Assembly: GCA_001780725.1 (NCBI GenBank)
Contig: MFIM01000009.1
Coordinates: forward strand, 656 to 64,655
Reading direction: 5' to 3'
Length of the DNA: 64,000 bases
Source of the DNA: Candidatus Giovannonibacteria bacterium RIFCSPLOWO2_02_FULL_45_28
GTDB lineage: Bacteria; Patescibacteriota; Minisyncoccia; UBA11713; 2-01-FULL-45-33
Shown here: positions 229 through 62,063 of the stretch, one piece after another
Position numbering within the stretch: position 1 is the first letter of the stretch
Layout: every line of letters begins with the position of its first letter
Program-made: the position numbers and the translations under genes
The notes under the pieces: generated by a model
Seen by the model: the letters and a program-made list of their open reading frames with translations, nothing else
Databases searched by the model: none
What the model was told of the DNA's origin: nothing

Positions 229-280
229 GTCACTCTCCTTGTTTTTGATCTAAAAATAAGCTAGCATATTGTTGTAAAAC

Positions 281-1459
281 ATGTCAAATAGCCTAAAGAA
301 AAAAGTGTTCGTAGCAATGAGCGGGGGAGTGGATTCGTCCGTGGCAGCTTTGTTGCTCAAAGAAAAAGGCTACGACGTGACCGGGGCGCATATGATTTGC
401 TGGGAGGGCTGCGAGAACAATGAAGACAAGCAAGACGCGATGAGGGTGGCGGCAAAACTCGGCATTCCGTTTTTGGTTTGGGATTTTAAAAAAGAATACC
501 GCGAGGATGTTTTTAATTATATGGTGGGCGAATACGCAGCTGGACTCACGCCGAATCCGGATGTGATGTGCAATAAGGAAATTAAGTTCGGGGTATTTTT
601 GAAAAAAGCGCTGAAAGCGGGGGCTGATTTTATCGCGACGGGACATTATGTACGGCTATGGCCCAGCTTACTTTCTCAAACCGATAATTCGTCGGCTCCT
701 GCGGCCGCCGATTATCTGCATTCTCGTCCCGAGAACTTTTGCTTCGCAAAAGACCAAGCTTCTCGGGACTGCGAAAGCTTTTCGAAAGCAAGCGGGACCA
801 TCGCTCTTCTTTCAGCGAAAGATCGCAATAAAGATCAAAGCTATTTCTTGTGGACTTTGACACAGAATCAGCTCCGACATTGTCTGTTTCCCATCGGCGA
901 TTATTTAAAAAGCGAAGTCCGAAAAATTGCGCTGGAAGCCGGATTGCCGGTAGCTGCGAAGCCGGATTCACAGGGGCTTTGTTTTGTCGGCAAAGTTGAT
1001 TTTCAGGAATTTTTGCGCGGGATTTTGCCACAAAAGACGGGAGAGGTTTTTTCTTCCGACGGGCGAGCGCTTGGAGAACACGAAGGCGCGCATTTCTACA
1101 CAATCGGCCAGCGGCACGGTTTTGCTTTGGGCGGACAGCCGGAACCTGTTTATATTGCGGAGAAAAACATTGCGGCTAACACTTTGGTTGTGGCGCGCGG
1201 TGCGGACGATCCTGTTTTGTATAAAAAAGAATTGGTGGTGGAAAATTTTAACTGGGTAGGCGGAATTCCGAAGATGCCTTTTTCGTGCCAAGCGCGCATT
1301 CGTTATCGCCAGCCGCTCCATAAGGCAACTCTCTATAAACTATCAACTACAAATCATAAACTGATTTTCGACGTTCCGCAGCGGGCAGTCGCTCCAGGCC
1401 AGTCAATAGTTTTTTACACAGAGGCTGGCGAGATGTTGGGAGGTGGTATAATAAAATGA
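281..1459 (+). CDS. mnmA: tRNA-specific 2-thiouridylase MnmA
   Basis: PP-loop SGGVDSS near the N-terminus, plus the conserved ATGHY and NKDQSYFL motifs. Carries a roughly 45-aa low-complexity insertion after ATGHYVR. Confidence 0.85.
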   Translation: MSNSLKKKVFVAMSGGVDSSVAALLLKEKGYDVTGAHMICWEGCENNEDKQDAMRVAAKLGIPFLVWDFKKEYREDVFNYMVGEYAAGLTPNPDVMCNKEIKFGVFLKKALKAGADFIATGHYVRLWPSLLSQTDNSSAPAAADYLHSRPENFCFAKDQASRDCESFSKASGTIALLSAKDRNKDQSYFLWTLTQNQLRHCLFPIGDYLKSEVRKIALEAGLPVAAKPDSQGLCFVGKVDFQEFLRGILPQKTGEVFSSDGRALGEHEGAHFYTIGQRHGFALGGQPEPVYIAEKNIAANTLVVARGADDPVLYKKELVVENFNWVGGIPKMPFSCQARIRYRQPLHKATLYKLSTTNHKLIFDVPQRAVAPGQSIVFYTEAGEMLGGGIIK

Positions 1460-4398: not shown

Positions 4399-4493
4399 AA
4401 CTCCTCCGTGTGTGGTTTATTTCCAAGCTGCCGTGTAATTCGCTCGGCAACAAAGCGTTATCTCTGTTTTTTAAGCTAGCACACGACAAAAAT

Positions 4494-4511
4494 CTTGTCA
4501 ATAGTGACAAG
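4494..4511. promoter_or_regulatory. perfect inverted repeat CTTGTCA-ATAG-TGACAAG overlapping a putative -35 upstream of the aminotransferase gene
   Basis: 7-bp arms read directly from the sequence. A TGcTATATT extended -10-like box lies at 4526..4534. Confidence 0.3.
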
Positions 4512-7084: not shown

Positions 7085-8370
7085 ACAATAAGGAAAATTT
7101 CAATCCAAATATTGTGCCGTCCAGCGGCAAACGGATTATTTCTGATGTAATTGTAACTCCCCAAAAAGAGATTGCTTCACGGTTTTTTCGCGAGCCCAAT
7201 CCGATTATCAAGCCGCGCGCTCCAAAACGGAGAATTGGGCAAAAGAAAGCATTTTTTTCTTTTATGATTTTGCTTGTTTTTTTGCTTGGTTGGGGGACTC
7301 TGGGCGCGAGGATGGAGGTAATTTTATCGCCAAAAATAGTTGCCGCGCCGGTTGATAAGGCTTTGGCTTTAACTAAAATTCAGGGAAACGGCAAGCTTGT
7401 TTTTAGAACTTTGTCTTTGCCGGACGCCAGGAGCGGCGAGTTTAAGGCTACCGAAAAAAAATCGCAGGAAAGCCGCGCGGAAGGAATAGTGGTTATTTTT
7501 AATAAAGCCAAGGAATCGCAGGTTTTAATAGCCTCTACGAGGCTGGAGTCTTCCGATGGGAAAATTTACCGCATCCCGCGTACCATTGTTGTGCCCGCTT
7601 CAAAGCAGGAGGGCGGCAAAACTATTCCGGGCTCTGTAGAAATTACAGTTATGGCGGATAAAACCGGCAATGAATATAATTTGGGACTTTCAGATTTTAC
7701 CCTGCCGGGACTTAAGGGCTCGCCGAAGTACGAGTTGGTTTTCGGAAGATCCAAAACGGAAATGCGGGGAGGCGCATCCGGCGAACAAACGGTTGTGGGG
7801 AAAAGCGATGTAAAAGAAGCCGCCGCTCAATTATTTTTGCAAGCAGGCCGCGAAGCCGCTAATTTGTTATTAAACAAGATCCCGCCCGGCGAGTTTTTGT
7901 TGCCGCCATCGGCAGAGTATGCCGCTTTAAATGAAAACTTAAATCCGGCTGTCGGCGCGATTGCGGAACGTTTTAAATTTACAATGGAAGGCGAAGTAAA
8001 GGGTGCCACTGTATCGCGCGGCGAGCTTGAAAAAGCGCTTTTTAAAGACAGCCCGGTTGTTTCCGGTTTGGATATTTCCAAGTTGCGAATTAAGAATCTT
8101 GATAAGCTGGATATTAAAATAATAGGTTATAAATTTGAAGCTGCTAATTTCAATGCGCTGATTTCGGGGAAGATGGAGATAGAAGGGGTGGTTGAACCAG
8201 ATGCTGTTAAAAGTTTTTTGGAAGAGCGCGCTGTTTTAGACGCAGATTCGGTTTTAAGCGCTTTCCCGGAGCTTGCCAGAGCCGAGTTAAGGCTGCGGCC
8301 TTTTTTGGCAATGCCCTTTTATCGTTGGCTTCGCAGGGTCCCGACCCGTATTGACATTGTTTTAGAGTAA
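7078..8370 (+). CDS. hypothetical bitopic membrane protein (possible pilus-assembly partner of the PilM-like gene)
   Basis: About 60-aa cytoplasmic N-terminus, one TM (FFSFMILLVFLLGWGTLG), large extracytoplasmic domain. Start overlaps the upstream gene. Confidence 0.35.
   Translation: MVNNKENFNPNIVPSSGKRIISDVIVTPQKEIASRFFREPNPIIKPRAPKRRIGQKKAFFSFMILLVFLLGWGTLGARMEVILSPKIVAAPVDKALALTKIQGNGKLVFRTLSLPDARSGEFKATEKKSQESRAEGIVVIFNKAKESQVLIASTRLESSDGKIYRIPRTIVVPASKQEGGKTIPGSVEITVMADKTGNEYNLGLSDFTLPGLKGSPKYELVFGRSKTEMRGGASGEQTVVGKSDVKEAAAQLFLQAGREAANLLLNKIPPGEFLLPPSAEYAALNENLNPAVGAIAERFKFTMEGEVKGATVSRGELEKALFKDSPVVSGLDISKLRIKNLDKLDIKIIGYKFEAANFNALISGKMEIEGVVEPDAVKSFLEERAVLDADSVLSAFPELARAELRLRPFLAMPFYRWLRRVPTRIDIVLE
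8347..8366 (+). repeat. 20-bp direct repeat, copy 1 (3' end of the 7078..8370 gene)
   Basis: cgtattgacattgttttaga, identical at 8860..8879. Encodes the C-terminal RIDIVLE. Confidence 0.7.
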
Positions 8371-8386
8371 GTGCTATTTTGAGTAT

Positions 8387-8602
8387 ATGACCACGTTAAC
8401 CATTCCGCGGCCGATGATAAAAAGCGACGATTTAGTTGTTTTGGGTCGCAAGGATTTTGAGCGGTTGGCGAAAGAAAACAAAGAGTTGCGTTTGGCGGTC
8501 AAAGCAATCGTAGTTGGGGAATTGGAATTGCGCCACGGCAAGACTCGGACTTTTAAGGATTTCCTGAAGACAGAGTTTCCCAAATATGCCAAAAGTTTCT
8601 AG
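8387..8602 (+). CDS. putative antitoxin of a type II TA pair
   Basis: 71 aa. Overlaps the downstream RelE/ParE-like gene by 17 nt. Confidence 0.45.
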   Translation: MTTLTIPRPMIKSDDLVVLGRKDFERLAKENKELRLAVKAIVVGELELRHGKTRTFKDFLKTEFPKYAKSF

Positions 8603-8855
8603 CTCTCATACGACATCGCATTTTGAAGATCAATTTGAGAAATTACCAAAAAGCGTTCAGAGGATCGCGGTTAAAAAAATTCTCTTATTTGAAGAAAACC
8701 AGTTTCATCCAAGTTTAAATACCCATAAACTAAAAGGCCCATTGGCTAATTTCTGGGCTTTTTCTATAAGTAAGGACTATAGAGTTTTATTTAGGTTTCT
8801 AGAAAATAACGCGGTTATTTATTATGATATTGATACTCATGACATCTATAAATAG
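8586..8855 (+). CDS. RelE/ParE-family type II toxin
   Basis: KLKGPLANFWAFSISKDYRVLFRF..VIYYDIDTHDIYK fits the RelE/ParE pattern (L.G.L..W...I..DYR..........V....I..H...Y). Confidence 0.6.
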   Translation: MPKVSSSHTTSHFEDQFEKLPKSVQRIAVKKILLFEENQFHPSLNTHKLKGPLANFWAFSISKDYRVLFRFLENNAVIYYDIDTHDIYK

Positions 8856-8859
8856 CGGT

Positions 8860-8879
8860 CGTATTGACATTGTTTTAGA
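8860..8879 (+). repeat. 20-bp direct repeat, copy 2 (after the TA pair)
   Basis: cgtattgacattgttttaga followed by agggagttaa, which would encode RIDIVLEGS-stop. Confidence 0.7.
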
Positions 8880-8890
8880 AGGGAGTTAAG

Positions 8891-8911
8891 ATGAAAGCTA
8901 TTCACGTTTAA
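8891..8911 (+). CDS. 6-codon uORF (MKAIHV) translationally coupled to infA through a TAATG overlap
   Basis: AAGGGAG RBS, then ATG at 8891, stop TAA 8909..8911 overlapping the infA ATG at 8911. Confidence 0.3.
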
Positions 8912-9132
8912 TGGCTGCCTTGTCTAAAGATGCGCTTATAAAAGAGGGTCAAGTGATTGAGGCGTTGCCTTCGGCAACGTTCCGTGTTTTGTTGGAAGAC
9001 GGCTCTGAAGTTATTGCGCACCTATCCGGCAAAATGCGGGTTAATTACATTAAAGTGCTGGTAGGAGACAGGGTTTTTGTTCAATTCAGCCCATACGACG
9101 CAACAAAAGGGCGGATTATAAAAAGATTATGA
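8911..9132 (+). CDS. infA: translation initiation factor IF-1
   Basis: [59 protein letters not shown]. Confidence 0.9.
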
Positions 9133-22887: not shown

Positions 22888-22969
22888 TCCGCCCACCAGG
22901 AATCGAACCTGGAACCTTCTCCTTTCCGCCAAAGGACGGATCAGCCTCCGGCTGAAAAAGGGAGCTGCT
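22888..22969 (-). pseudogene. tRNA-Lys-derived 3' fragment (D-stem 3' side to acceptor end) carrying a 31-nt insertion in the anticodon loop
   Basis: T-arm and acceptor identical to the intact copy exactly 100 bp downstream. Shares an identical 57-bp segment (22913..22969) with the 5' fragment at 23343..23399. Confidence 0.6.
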
Positions 22970-22987
22970 TATAGAAACAGCGCTTTC

Positions 22988-23060
22988 TCCGCCCACCAGG
23001 AATCGAACCTGGAACCTTCTCCTTAAAAGGGAGCTGCTCTGCCAATTGAGCTATGGGCGG
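22988..23060 (-). tRNA. tRNA-Lys (anticodon UUU)
   Basis: Folded by hand: 7-bp acceptor CCGCCCA/TGGGCGG, D-arm GCTC..GAGC, anticodon loop CTTTTAA, T-arm CCAGG-TTCGATT-CCTGG, discriminator A. No encoded CCA. Confidence 0.85.
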
Positions 23061-23083
23061 AGGAAGCGCTGTGCTTCCACTAC

Positions 23084-23329
23084 TTAGCTTTTTAATATTT
23101 CATCCAAAAACTTTCTGCCAACGCCGGATTTCAAAAAATTTTCACGCTTTCGAGCATTCGTCTTATCGGCACAACTTTCTTGATACACCAACTCAAACGG
23201 CCCGTTTCTTCTCGTGAATTTATTGGAACCATAGTTGTGTTTCTTTAACCTTTCCCCTGGCAATAAATCTGTGCTTCCTACATAACGCTTACCATTTTTT
23301 AAACTTTTTAATACATATATGTACGACAT
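23084..23329 (-). CDS. GIY-YIG nuclease-domain protein (YazA/YhbQ-like, 81 aa)
   Basis: YIYVLKSLKNGKRYVGSTDLLPGERLKKHN...GPFELVY.E is the GIY-YIG pattern. Confidence 0.7.
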   Translation of the reverse strand: MSYIYVLKSLKNGKRYVGSTDLLPGERLKKHNYGSNKFTRRNGPFELVYQESCADKTNARKRENFLKSGVGRKFLDEILKS

Positions 23330-23342
23330 ATTTTCTTAGCGT

Positions 23343-23434
23343 AACCTTCTCCTTTCCGCCAAAGGACGGATCAGCCTCCGGCTGAAAAAGGGAGCTGCTC
23401 TGCCTCCGCCAGCCGGCGGATGAGCTATGGGCGG
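23343..23434 (-). pseudogene. tRNA-Lys-derived 5' fragment (acceptor to variable loop) with a 17-nt hairpin insertion in the D-loop and a 31-nt insertion in the anticodon loop
   Basis: Reverse complement CCGCCCATAGCTCA[TCCGCCGGCTGGCGGAG]GCAGAGCAGCTCCCTTTT[TCAGCC..GGCGGA]AAGGAGAAGGTT aligns to the intact tRNA-Lys apart from the bracketed inserts. Confidence 0.6.
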
Positions 23435-23535
23435 ATGATTTATTTTAACCCTTTTGGCTAATTTGGGCAAGCTTTGCGTTTTCCGTGCGCACTGGTATAC
23501 GCTTGAGGTAGAGAACCTATTAAAATGAGGTTAAA

Positions 23536-47596: not shown

Positions 47597-48243
47597 GCCC
47601 CAACTCCTTCAATGACCTAAAAGAGCTTTTAGAAAAACTGCCTGGGATCGGCCCGCGGCAGGCATCGCGTTTTATCTGGGCGATGCTGGATTTTGAGCCC
47701 AAAGAGCGAGAAAACATGGCTAGTTTGATAAACTCGCTGGATCAGCATTTAAAAAGGTGCGGTGAATGCCTCCGGGCTCACTTGGCGACTAAGTCCCCAA
47801 GTGGAGATTTGGCTACAGTTTGTTCTTTCTGCCAGCCAATCTCAAATCGCGATCACTCCAAAATTATGGTCGTAGAGCGCGACAGCGATCTTTTAAATAT
47901 TGAAAAATCAAAAATTTACGGCGGGCTTTACCATGTTTTAGGCGGGGCGCTGGACCTACTGGAAAAAGACGAAGGCGTGCGCAAGAGCATAAAATTTCTA
48001 AAGGTGCGCGCTGAATCAGGCAAGGTTAAAGAAATTATTTTGGCCCTCTCCCCTGTCAAACTCGGCGAGTTCACGGCCGGTTTTATAGAAAAAGTTTTTG
48101 AGCCGTTTTCAAAACCTGCCAGTCCGGCAGGCGGGTCACAAAAGCTGAAAATTTCCCGGCTCGCCCGCGGCCTCGCCACTGGCACAGATCTGGAATACGC
48201 CGACGAGACCACTCTGAAACAAGCTATTGACAATAGAAAGTAG
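47593..48243 (+). CDS. recR: recombination protein RecR
   Basis: LPGIGPRQASRF HhH, C4 zinc finger, Toprim, SRLARGLATGTDLEYAD. Confidence 0.9.
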   Translation: MSPNSFNDLKELLEKLPGIGPRQASRFIWAMLDFEPKERENMASLINSLDQHLKRCGECLRAHLATKSPSGDLATVCSFCQPISNRDHSKIMVVERDSDLLNIEKSKIYGGLYHVLGGALDLLEKDEGVRKSIKFLKVRAESGKVKEIILALSPVKLGEFTAGFIEKVFEPFSKPASPAGGSQKLKISRLARGLATGTDLEYADETTLKQAIDNRK

Positions 48244-48279
48244 GAGTGCTATGCTGGAAAGCAGAAAGGAGGGTCAAAT

Positions 48280-60374: not shown

Positions 60375-62063
60375 ATGCGAGGAGCTACTTTGTGGCTTGT
60401 TATTATTTTACTTATAGCGGTTTTTTTCCGTTTTTACGATTTAAAAAATGTGCCGCCAGGGCTGTGGGCGGACGAAGCAATAAACGGGAATAATGCGGTG
60501 GAGGCGAACTGGAAAGTTTTTTACCCGGAGAATTTTGGCAGAGAAGGCCTTTTTATAAATATTCAATCGTTGTTTGTCACCGCCTTCGGCAACGAGCCGT
60601 GGGTATTGCGCTTGCCTTCGGCGATTTTCGGCGCATTGACCGTGCTGGGGCTTTATTTAATGACACGCGAACTATTTAGCGGAAAGGTTGCGTTGTTCGC
60701 TTCTTTTTTTCTGGCAACTTCTTTTTGGCATATTAATTTTTCCCGCATCGGATTCCGCGCGATTATGGCGCCGTTTTTTTTGGTCTGGAGTTTCTATTTT
60801 TTATTTTTAGGAATGAGAAAAACTGCGACCTTCTCAACACTCGGTGTTGAATCACCAAAAACACAGAGTGTTTTCCCAGTCGCAGTTTTTGCTTTGGCTG
60901 GATTACTTTTTGGCCTCGGCTTTCACTCCTATATTGCTTACCGAATTGCGCCCGTAATCGCACTTTTGCCGCTTTGGAAATTTTATAAATTGCGGTTGAT
61001 TGAAGTCCGACTTCAATCAGTTTCTGATGGAAGTCGGACTTCAATCATTTCTCGCGCTTGCACGCCGTGCCTAATTGGCCTTTTTATTTTCATGGCTTTC
61101 GTTGCCGCTCTTCCTTTGCTTTGGTATTATGCGCAGAATCCGGCGGATTTTTTGGGAAGAACTTCGGCAATATCAATTTTCCGATCACCGAACCCGCTCG
61201 CTCAATTTTCAGAAAATTTTGTAAAAACTCTGGGGATGTTCAATGTTGTAGGCGATTTTAACTGGCGGCACAATCTTGCCGGCTCTCCCCAGCTTTGGTG
61301 GTCAGTAGGAATTTTATTTCTTTTTGGTCTTTTGGTCGCATTGCGCTCCTCAACACTCGGTGTTAAATCCCAAAAAACACCGAGTGTTTTCCCGCGCAAT
61401 GCGTATAATTTTGTTCTGCTTTGGTTTGCAATCATGCTATTGCCAGTCGCTCTTTCCAACGAATCTTTGCCGCATGCCCTTCGCGCCATTGTTTTGATAC
61501 CGCCTGCGATGATTTTTGCCGCTTTGGGGCTGGAACGGATTATTGAAAAATTTAAAACGTGGCTAGAAAAGCAAAAAAACAATTGGCCGAGCAAGCTAAA
61601 CCAGCTTCTTCGCATACAGCGCGAGCTTATTTTATTGCTTTTTGTATTTTTTGCCGCCAATATTGCCCATGCTTATAACGCATACTTTCTTCGCTGGGCT
61701 CCAAATTTTAACGTTTACCAAGCATTTCAGGTCGACATTACGGAAAAGGCTCATTGGCTTAATCAACAGCCAGAAAACATTAAAAAATATGTTATTACTG
61801 ACGCCGTTGATCGTATAGATATAAGCGGCTCTCCAATGTCGCTTCAACCGGTTATTTTTATCACAAATACTTTTTTTGAAAAAGTTCAGAAAGAAAAAAA
61901 TATTTATTATTTTGGCGCAAACAATCTGAGCGGCGTTGATTGCTCCGGCAAATGCGTTATTATCCCGGTTGAATCAAAACCCACAATTTATAAAACCCTG
62001 AAACAAAAAATCCCAGGTTTGCGCTTGGATGCTTCCCCTGGGTTTGTGATTTTTAGAAAATGA
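60375..62063 (+). CDS. GT-C fold glycosyltransferase family 39 (PMT/ArnT-like)
   Basis: N-terminal DE motif (WADEAINGNNA), about 12 TM. Carries three in-frame palindromic inserts. Confidence 0.7.
   Translation: MRGATLWLVIILLIAVFFRFYDLKNVPPGLWADEAINGNNAVEANWKVFYPENFGREGLFINIQSLFVTAFGNEPWVLRLPSAIFGALTVLGLYLMTRELFSGKVALFASFFLATSFWHINFSRIGFRAIMAPFFLVWSFYFLFLGMRKTATFSTLGVESPKTQSVFPVAVFALAGLLFGLGFHSYIAYRIAPVIALLPLWKFYKLRLIEVRLQSVSDGSRTSIISRACTPCLIGLFIFMAFVAALPLLWYYAQNPADFLGRTSAISIFRSPNPLAQFSENFVKTLGMFNVVGDFNWRHNLAGSPQLWWSVGILFLFGLLVALRSSTLGVKSQKTPSVFPRNAYNFVLLWFAIMLLPVALSNESLPHALRAIVLIPPAMIFAALGLERIIEKFKTWLEKQKNNWPSKLNQLLRIQRELILLLFVFFAANIAHAYNAYFLRWAPNFNVYQAFQVDITEKAHWLNQQPENIKKYVITDAVDRIDISGSPMSLQPVIFITNTFFEKVQKEKNIYYFGANNLSGVDCSGKCVIIPVESKPTIYKTLKQKIPGLRLDASPGFVIFRK
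60821..60877 (+). repeat. 57-bp in-frame palindromic element, copy 1, inside the GT39 gene
   Basis: aactgcgacc..CAACACTCGGTGTTgaatcaccaaaaaCACAGAGTGTT..gtcgcagtt: nested inverted repeats. About 90% identical core to 61338..61402. Confidence 0.7.
60997..61047 (+). repeat. tandem 23-nt palindromes (tgattgaagtccgacttcaatca / tgatggaagtcggacttcaatca) inside the GT39 gene
   Basis: Read directly. In-frame, encoding LIEVRLQSVSDGSRTSII. Confidence 0.65.
61338..61402 (+). repeat. 65-bp in-frame palindromic element, copy 2, inside the GT39 gene
   Basis: gcattgcgc..CAACACTCGGTGTTaaatcccaaaaaaCACCGAGTGTT..gcgcaatgc. Confidence 0.7.

Follow-up and report, generated by a model that had tools for sequence, protein, structure and literature searches.

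A predicted RelE-type toxin–antitoxin module at an apparent cassette hotspot, where a gene end overlaps the putative infA promoter of Candidatus Giovannonibacteria

Why should the last codons of one gene be repeated, letter for letter, on the far side of a small gene pair that separates it from infA? The question is raised by a stretch of 64,000 nucleotides from Candidatus Giovannonibacteria bacterium RIFCSPLOWO2_02_FULL_45_28 (contig MFIM01000009.1, positions 656 to 64,655; all of it referred to here as the window), in which a gene for a 430-amino-acid (aa) membrane protein is followed by two small open reading frames (ORFs) and then by infA. An earlier note on this DNA read the two ORFs as a RelE/ParE toxin–antitoxin cassette, inserted with a 20-bp target duplication precisely between the end of the membrane gene and a leader that couples the translation of infA to a short upstream frame. 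The explanation that we prefer, at a probability of roughly 0.7, is that the pair is a type II toxin–antitoxin module in a lineage-wide cassette hotspot and that the repeat represents an overlap between gene end and infA promoter that is needed on both sides of the insert.

The window contains exactly two copies of the 20-mer CGTATTGACATTGTTTTAGA, both of them on the + strand (Table 1): one in the 3'-terminal part of the membrane gene, the other after the toxin gene, as the earlier note had placed them. No third copy was found in the window with up to three mismatches allowed, and 0/100 dinucleotide shuffles yielded two matches. The edges of the repeat are abrupt (c/t at 8346/8859 and g/a at 8367/8880), and the two copies agree from 4 nt before to 10 nt beyond a shared TTGACA hexamer. 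Copy 2 starts 4 nt past the stop of the 89-aa ORF and is followed by AGGGAGTTAAG and then by an ATG (8891–8893) that opens the 6-codon frame MKAIHV, whose TAA (8909–8911) overlaps the infA ATG (8911–8913) in a TAATG, again the arrangement that had been described. The toxin–antitoxin pair accounts for the only two ORFs within the insert, and no inverted repeat pairs 8367 with 8859. The segment 7078–9132 showed 0 mismatches in 2055 bp across seven independent assemblies (NCBI GCA_001780605.1, ENA, and four JGI Rifle samples), so an assembly artefact is excluded; one of the identical assemblies is contig MFHX01000026 of Candidatus Giovannonibacteria GCA_001780605.1, a Candidate Phyla Radiation (CPR) genome from Rifle groundwater.

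Related loci (L numbers below) were collected by an alignment-based contig scan; a single-sequence scan with the membrane protein gave none. The membrane protein matched no Pfam or NCBIfam model. It has one N-terminal transmembrane segment, and its gene lies downstream of a PilM/FtsA-like gene. Its 74 homologues keep a C-terminal RIDI[VI]L motif, and many orthologues end in GS. Orthologous genes occur across Parcubacteria, with infA as the next gene in most and a gap of 0–140 nt in the majority. Empty sites were present in L017, L018, L019, L022–L024, and L025, relatives at 39–55% protein identity in which the gap between membrane gene and infA is only 4–32 nt and the gene ends read ...RIDIVLKGS-stop, ...RIDIILK-stop, and similar. 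At the empty sites of these related species (L025, L017, and others), the repeat sequence is present once, which supports the proposal that the repeat is a target duplication. Removal of 8367–8879 from the window leaves CGT ATT GAC ATT GTT TTA GAA GGG AGT TAA, or RIDIVLEGS-stop, the same form of gene end as in L025 and L017. Since excision rebuilds this end, copy 2 and the next 10 nt correspond to the ancestral gene end, and the AAGGGAG within them is a relic of the E-G-S codons. The earlier note had taken AAGGGAG for a ribosome-binding site; the motif is instead coding (K/E-G-S) in empty-site relatives and falls in the spacer of a predicted promoter.

That promoter is the second property of the gene end. 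Upstream of infA, TTGACA is followed after exactly 17 nt by TA[AG]NAT in 17/17 clade loci, empty and occupied alike, and only positions 3 and 4 of the hexamer vary among the 17, as expected of a -10 box. The -10 hexamer takes the forms TAAGAT, TAATAT, and TAGTAT, and at empty sites it begins with the stop codon of the membrane gene (TAA or TAG). TTGACA lies in the gene end of 21/85 loci and is clade-restricted; more distant Parcubacteria show a similar C-terminal peptide pattern without the hexamer. The dual coding is visible throughout the Giovannonibacteria clade (L008–L025, L093–L096, L106, and L107), where I-D-I is always written aTTGACAt. The insertion therefore did not fall between a gene end and a leader, as the earlier note had it, but inside the ancestral last codons (...L-[KEQ]-G-S-stop) that overlap a predicted sigma-70-type infA promoter in 17/17 loci. 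Both promoters predicted in the window scored 10/12 in a consensus scan, and the one at the left of the insert also has a TG extension.

We propose that the infA promoter of ancestral Giovannonibacteria coincided with the end of the membrane gene, whose final codons and stop (...R-I-D-I-V-L-K/E/Q-G-S-stop) served both purposes. DNA entering such an overlap would be likely to persist only when the overlap segment flanks it on both sides, and the 20-bp repeat would be that segment. Copy 1 would complete the membrane gene, with a new stop supplied by the insert, and would give its -35 hexamer to the extended -10 box of the cassette; copy 2, together with the relic GAA GGG AGT TAA, would stay in use as the infA promoter. 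Cassettes most likely entered, we infer, by a recombinase-independent insertion that duplicated the target, by exchange through homologous recombination in the conserved flanks, or by both. Overlapping functions would in this way shape which insertions become visible, and a target duplication would appear without any transposase.

Table 1. Features around the insert, in coordinates of the window
Feature	Coordinates	Strand	Remarks
Membrane-protein gene, 430 aa	7078–8370	+	ORF; stop at 8368–8370; last codons RIDIVLE-stop from repeat copy 1
Repeat copy 1	8347–8366	+	Codes for R-I-D-I-V-L-(E); TTGACA -35 hexamer at 8351–8356
Predicted antitoxin–toxin promoter	8351–8380	+	TTGACA at 8351–8356, 18-nt spacer, extended -10 TGcTATTTT at 8372–8380
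Insert-specific DNA, 493 bp	8367–8859	+	Absent in empty-site relatives
Antitoxin candidate, 71 aa	8387–8602	+	Uncharacterised family
RelE-superfamily toxin (predicted), 89 aa	8586–8855	+	17-nt overlap with antitoxin ORF
Repeat copy 2	8860–8879	+	Opens relic gene end 8860–8889; infA -35 hexamer at 8864–8869
Predicted infA promoter	8864–8892	+	TTGACA at 8864–8869, 17-nt spacer including AAGGGAG, -10 TAAGAT at 8887–8892
Upstream ORF MKAIHV-stop, 6 codons	8891–8911	+	ATG overlaps -10 hexamer; TAA overlaps infA ATG
infA (translation initiation factor IF-1)	8911–9132	+	PF01176, E 1.6e-23; heads infA-rpmJ-rpsM-rpsK-rpsD-rpoA-rplQ cluster

Counted from the end of the -10 box, the antitoxin ATG (8387) starts at the 7th nucleotide, and the same order of -10 box, 6 nt, and ATG recurs in L093, L095, L096, and L012. 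A gap of 6 nt predicts a leaderless antitoxin–toxin mRNA. No terminator-like site separates the toxin gene from infA (8600–8900), and read-through of cassette transcripts into the infA/ribosomal-protein operon is therefore probable. In the window as a whole, extended -10 sites of the form TTGACA-N13-16-TGNTANNNT number four, against 0.09 expected, at 258–287 (-), 4473–4501 (-), 8351–8380 (+), and 48227–48255 (+); this suggests that the genome may have a distinct class of strong extended -10 promoters.

The downstream ORF of the pair has 133 homologues of the same length at 60–82% identity, most of which match PF05015 and several of which are named RelE/StbE by NCBI; all those with a source name come from Patescibacteria. 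When 23 homologues from this identity range were sampled, 21 matched PF05015 at E<1e-3 (best 1.4e-8). A profile of the toxin family found Proteus HigB among known structures at E 2.6e-4. The AlphaFold2 model of the window toxin reached a mean predicted local distance difference test (pLDDT) score of 82 and a predicted template modelling score of 0.72, and Foldseek aligned it to RelK, YoeB, YafQ, RelE, and HigB in the PDB at TM-scores of 0.75–0.80. The PDB matches at E<=1e-3 number 46 and are nearly all RelE/RelK/YoeB/YafQ/HigB/ParE-like, with best TM-scores of 0.77–0.80, the exception being the insecticidal toxin Txp40 (7xbj, ranks 26–27). Invariant in the family are His47, Lys48, Lys50, Arg66, Tyr79/80, His85, and Tyr88. 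By its predicted fold the protein is a RelE/YoeB/YafQ/HigB-like toxin, presumably a ribosome-dependent mRNA endonuclease (mRNA interferase). The GC content of its gene is 0.319 against 0.443 for the window, at the 0.7th percentile of window segments, and we list it as support for a foreign origin.

The 71-aa protein encoded upstream belongs to a family with the pattern TITIPK...DLVV..K.FE.L...GE..LR.GKTR.F. Its 54 relatives in a library of 1.8 billion proteins, at least some of them from Patescibacteria, have no Pfam or NCBIfam model of their own. A profile of the family found nothing significant in the PDB; the only lead, a weak one at E 0.02, pointed to the C-terminal half of an antitoxin chain, 8yxv_B, and the toxin chain of the same structure, 8yxv, is the second-best fold match of the window toxin. 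Two familiar assignments were rejected. A Phd/YefM antitoxin should match a family model, and neither the window protein nor 35 relatives matched one in Pfam or NCBIfam; in HigBA proper the gene order differs, and the antitoxin ORF here lies upstream of the toxin and lacks a helix-turn-helix or any other Pfam match.

What ties the two proteins together is their recurrence as neighbours. The antitoxin family stands beside the toxin family in L093, L108, and L111 as well, in differing contexts: the L108 pair lies between tsaE and a 5'-3' exonuclease gene, and the L111 pair follows a gene for GAPDH. With the RelE-superfamily fold and the 133 close homologues, this recurrence bears out the identification of a RelE/ParE toxin–antitoxin pair, and we conclude that the sequence and model evidence argues for a genuine type II module composed of a RelE-superfamily toxin and an antitoxin of an undescribed family. 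No direct repeats flank the same toxin–antitoxin family at its other sites (L108, L111, and L112), so the duplication belongs to the infA site and not to the cassette. In L108, another Patescibacteria contig, at 2000–2250, about 250 nt devoid of ORFs separate tsaE from the pair and end in a terminator-like hairpin; this segment may be a structured RNA.

At the infA site, by comparison, the cargo varies widely. At least seven kinds lie between the membrane gene and infA. The toxin–antitoxin family of the window recurs in L093 at 82–85% aa identity, and L015 carries a ParE toxin with an antitoxin related to that of the window. Other toxin–antitoxin cargoes are a PIN/VapC pair in L016, HicB-HicA in L021, and a 363-aa coiled-coil protein with HicB and a HicA remnant in L009 and L014. 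In L095, a 363-aa-like gene and the antitoxin are accompanied by a toxin that is truncated and joined to the relic; L096 carries an 86-aa ORF with an orphan antitoxin, and L106 has a related antitoxin. A CrtO-like membrane protein occupies the site in L008 (with a 106-aa ORF) and L107, and small transmembrane ORFs occupy it in L012. The duplicated gene-end segment accompanies these cargoes, matching at 20/20 positions in the window, 19/20 in L008, and 24/24 in L009, and measuring 18 in L093 and 17 in L096. It is imperfect in L016 (~24/29) and L021 (~27/31), and the second copy is degenerate in L012. Copy 1 is always followed by a -10-like hexamer at 17–18 nt, for example, TGaTATAAT in L008, and nearly all occupied sites belong to the clade whose gene end holds the promoter. 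On these comparisons, the site is a multi-cargo hotspot and not the scene of a one-off insertion. The hotspot is of nucleotide-scale precision and lies at the head of the infA/ribosomal-protein/rpoA cluster, used by at least four toxin families (RelE-like, ParE, PIN/VapC, and HicA), and it may couple toxin–antitoxin transcription to a translation operon in unculturable organisms.

Several loci preserve stages in the decay of the same cassette. In L095 (900–1150), the toxin is truncated and fused in frame with the relic gene end (...SNSGCIDIVLQGS and stop), and in L096 (465–770), the toxin has been lost and the orphan antitoxin has its own promoter. In L009 (6440–6560) and L095 (630–700), the cassette promoters lie downstream of a shared terminator-like hairpin (GACGATCCCGGATCGTC or GGCGATCCCGGATCGCC and then a run of T), part of which survives in L093 (40–100), where the 363-aa gene found before it in other loci is missing. 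The shared hairpin and its remnant point to modular cassette boundaries and to deletion.

The same relatives bear on how the left end of the insert in the window came about. In L093, L095, and L096, the antitoxin gene has a TTGACA box of its own, and in L095 and L096, it also has an upstream terminator hairpin. The window has neither; the TTGACA of the gene end is used there at the same 18-nt spacing. The left junction in the window is therefore likely to derive from a later deletion, in which recombination in register between two promoters would have fused the -35 hexamer of the gene end to the -10 box of the cassette. The junction is probably secondary, with 8366/8367 not the original boundary of insertion, and if so, the repeat is not an untouched footprint of the original event. 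The cassette is also old at the site, since nucleotide identity between the window and L093 is similar in the toxin–antitoxin genes (76–80%) and in infA (73%).

Several observations weigh against the reading of a toxin–antitoxin module in a hotspot at a gene-end/promoter overlap. The window toxin itself scored just under the curated cut-offs of the hidden Markov models (24.3 bits against a cut-off of 27 for PF05015, HigB-like, and 23.5 against 27.9 for TIGR02385, RelE/StbE), and the 71-aa antitoxin and 35 relatives matched no recognised family in Pfam or NCBIfam. The structure model of the antitoxin is also poor (pLDDT 65). The proposed comparison with relatives yielded empty sites at the species level and none at the strain level: an exact search of JGI metagenomes for the reconstructed empty junction gave 0 matches, so the case for a gain comes only from species whose membrane protein is about 50% identical. 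(An empty junction would read CCGACCCGTATTGACATTGTTTTAGAAGGGAG; the corresponding circle junction, the toxin end and one repeat followed by GTAAGTGC, would be ATAAATAGCGGTCGTATTGACATTGTTTTAGAGTAAGTGC.) A JGI scan for the relic of relatives like L008, L093, and L096 likewise gave 0 matches, and those relatives come from Logan and ENA data, outside that collection. The promoters, the transcription starts, and the leaderless mRNA are consensus-based and comparative predictions only. If the cassette is old, copies that are still 100% identical would have to be explained by purifying selection acting on each of them (on coding sequence and -35 hexamer in copy 1, on -35 hexamer and spacer in copy 2), by gene conversion, or by a re-duplication not long ago. 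Finally, the L093 counterpart of the ATG at 8891 is in frame with infA, so a reading of AAGGGAG and this ATG as Shine–Dalgarno (SD) sequence and start codon keeps some standing.

The rival that survives best is a possible though unlikely history in which the gene end and promoter were duplicated once, in an ancestor of the clade, and the cargo was later replaced or deleted between the two promoter copies. Lineages would have exchanged cargo by homologous recombination in the conserved flanking genes, as in a minimal mobile element of the Neisseria type, with empty sites arising by deletion between the repeats. Toxin–antitoxin divergence close to that of infA fits such a history, and direct repeats do allow precise deletion. 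The junction after TTTTA[GC]A is the same in the window, L008, L096, and L107 despite their differing cargo, and remodelling has been frequent, as seen in L093, which keeps the hairpin without the 363-aa gene, in the truncated toxin of L095, and in the toxin-less L096. Empty sites, however, are the rule outside the clade and occur inside it too (L025 next to L012, L015, and L016), and the extent of the repeat differs by lineage. The copies within a genome are closer to each other than orthologous copies are between genomes, which favours separate events or conversion, and the origin of the first duplication would still be unexplained.

A second rival, which we consider improbable, concerns the leader: AAGGGAG would be the SD sequence of MKAIHV, infA would be translated by termination and reinitiation at TAATG, and the insertion would have respected this unit. 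AAGGGAG does resemble an SD sequence and is separated by 4 nt (TTAA) from the ATG at 8891, the infA gene of the window lacks an SD sequence of its own, and read-through transcripts from the toxin–antitoxin promoter would, with no terminator in between, include the upstream ORF (uORF). Relatives are divided. L008 has an equivalent 6-codon uORF (MAHISV) that also ends in TAATG, and the counterpart in L093 is fused to infA. L009 and L096 have a frame of the same length, but it begins with ATA. The group of L025, L012, L015, and L016 has no uORF at all and instead a longer leader, with its own SD sequence nearer to infA. The uORF start moreover overlaps the conserved -10 box and would be missing from transcripts of that promoter, and the AAGGGAG stretch is coding at empty sites. 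The translational-coupling leader that the earlier note had proposed is thus not kept among relatives; at best, it may be lineage-specific and translatable only on read-through transcripts, and its function is doubtful. For annotation, this means that a displaced gene end can survive in fossil form as what looks like a leader with SD sequence and uORF.

Slightly less probable again is site-specific recombination, with the repeat of about 20 bp as an att-like core and a trans-acting recombinase (tyrosine, Xer-like, or integron-like) that inserts and excises circular cassettes in the manner of pdif modules, IMEX elements, or integron cassettes. The same short sequence surrounds unrelated cargo in many relatives, and the upstream edge of copy 2 always falls 1–5 nt before TTGACA. 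Repeats of 17–24 bp lie within the typical range of att cores; Furuta, Abe and Kobayashi (2010; PMC2853133) took a threshold of >30 bp to exclude such cases. Wobble positions also co-vary within genomes (g-a-g/g-a-g in the window, a-a-c/a-a-c in L096, and a-g-c/a-g-c in L009). Against this, none of the cargoes contains a recombinase gene, the duplicated extent (~17 to ~31 bp) and the downstream junction vary by lineage, the cassette ends share no conserved motif or inverted repeat, and the core lacks dyad symmetry. No further copy of the core is present in the window, and its 9 matches in IMG/VR, about the number expected by chance on a rough estimate, do not extend past the search pattern. 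The cassettes also have their own promoters and terminators, unlike those of integrons.

Mobile-element explanations were rejected or disfavoured on the same kinds of evidence. A transposon or insertion sequence with target-site duplication, usually <15 bp, would have to explain a 20-bp duplication with no transposase and no terminal inverted repeats. A phage or mobile-element attP is disfavoured by IMG/VR core matches that are near chance and unextended and by the absence of toxin relatives in viral contigs. Integrase-mediated integration at an att core does not fit cargoes free of recombinase genes with duplications of 17–31 bp across lineages, a trans-acting recombinase being possible. An integron array is contradicted by the lack of a palindromic or conserved motif at cassette ends, by cassettes with their own promoter and hairpin, and by the absence of an adjoining integrase, and a dif-like reading by the missing inverted repeats, dyad symmetry, and recombinase. 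The weakest rival, a chance match or convergent promoter sequence between ordinary resident genes, draws on the fact that a consensus -35 hexamer recurs by function but is practically negligible, given the shuffles, an identity that exceeds the hexamer on both sides, a copy 2 that runs on into the exact ancestral gene end, and a duplication that recurs with other cargo in relatives.

The preferred reading, of a module held in a hotspot by the overlap of gene end and infA promoter, can be extended to a speculative proposal that we rate as low as site-specific recombination. The segment of -35 hexamer and gene end might act as a reusable, recombinase-independent docking site, at which cassettes with extended -10, leaderless promoters of their own are captured, swapped, and trimmed by in-register promoter recombination. 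If this were true, each cassette would be expressed automatically on arrival and the infA promoter regenerated every time, a promoter-based analogue of the integron in CPR bacteria, and toxin–antitoxin transcripts would be fed into the infA/ribosomal-protein operon.

Two further repeats were seen elsewhere in the window. At 22888–23438 (-), an exact 57-bp repeat (22913–22969 and 23343–23399) flanks an intact tRNA-Lys(ttt) at 22987–23061 and an 81-aa GIY-YIG-like ORF. A tRNA 5' half with an additional hairpin stands before the upstream copy, and a tRNA 3' half comes after the downstream copy. The region reads as a second, insert-bearing tRNA-Lys-like gene that an insertion, duplicating 57 bp of target, may have split; if so, it would be the second duplication-flanked insertion in the window. 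At 60830–60877 and 61346–61393, a 48-nt direct repeat, 90% identical and 516 nt apart, contains an internal hairpin-forming sequence.

Among known systems, the pair resembles RelBE, YefM-YoeB, DinJ-YafQ, and HigBA in its small toxin, RelE-type fold, and conserved His/Lys/Arg/Tyr residues. As in other RelE/ParE modules, the antitoxin gene lies upstream, here with a 17-nt overlap, and the module is found in several unrelated contexts. It differs from higBA in having the antitoxin first and from described RelE/ParE modules in an antitoxin outside the described families and a toxin just under the model cut-offs. The cassette site recalls integron cassettes and pdif (Xer) modules, which are small, lack a recombinase, often carry toxin–antitoxin genes, and share a short boundary sequence that recurs at one chromosomal location. 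The site at infA lacks attC- or dif-like dyad symmetry and an integrase by the array, and it has cassettes with their own promoters and terminators and a duplication of varying length. Minimal mobile elements are defined within a naturally transformable species and are not known to need a flanking repeat. In Neisseria, as presented in PMC1797815 (citing Saunders and Snyder, 2002), such elements place differing cassettes at one position between conserved genes; this they share with the infA site, which was compared between species and has a duplicated gene end at each occupied site. For differing cassettes at a single position, minimal mobile elements would by analogy be the nearest model. A fixed locus that gathers diverse toxin–antitoxin systems in related uncultured lineages also has a parallel in the variable hotspots of ANME-1, which according to PMC13385816 are enriched in toxin–antitoxin and defence genes, hicAB among them; relative to that description, the Giovannonibacteria site is a single intergenic or gene-end position in the promoter of an essential translation gene and has a repeat signature.

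Of the phenomena described so far, insertion with long target duplication (Furuta et al., 2010; PMC2853133) comes nearest to the repeat itself; it was reported for restriction-modification genes of H. pylori and H. influenzae, among others. The 46-bp repeats in Figure 3 of that study overlap the 3' ends of genes, and apart from Burkholderia, Microcystis, Acidovorax, and Clavibacter, the majority of its cases are from naturally competent species. The likenesses are a selfish pair without mobility genes, a repeat that is single in the empty genome and lies on the 3' end of a neighbouring gene, and an insert with a GC content below that of the genome. The cargo here is a toxin–antitoxin pair, the 20-bp repeat falls below the >30 bp threshold of that study, one site is reused by varied cargo, and the duplicated segment is predicted to be a functional promoter element. 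The locus is a combination of known things, a RelE-type toxin–antitoxin module, an insertion with target duplication, and a cassette hotspot, and not a new system.

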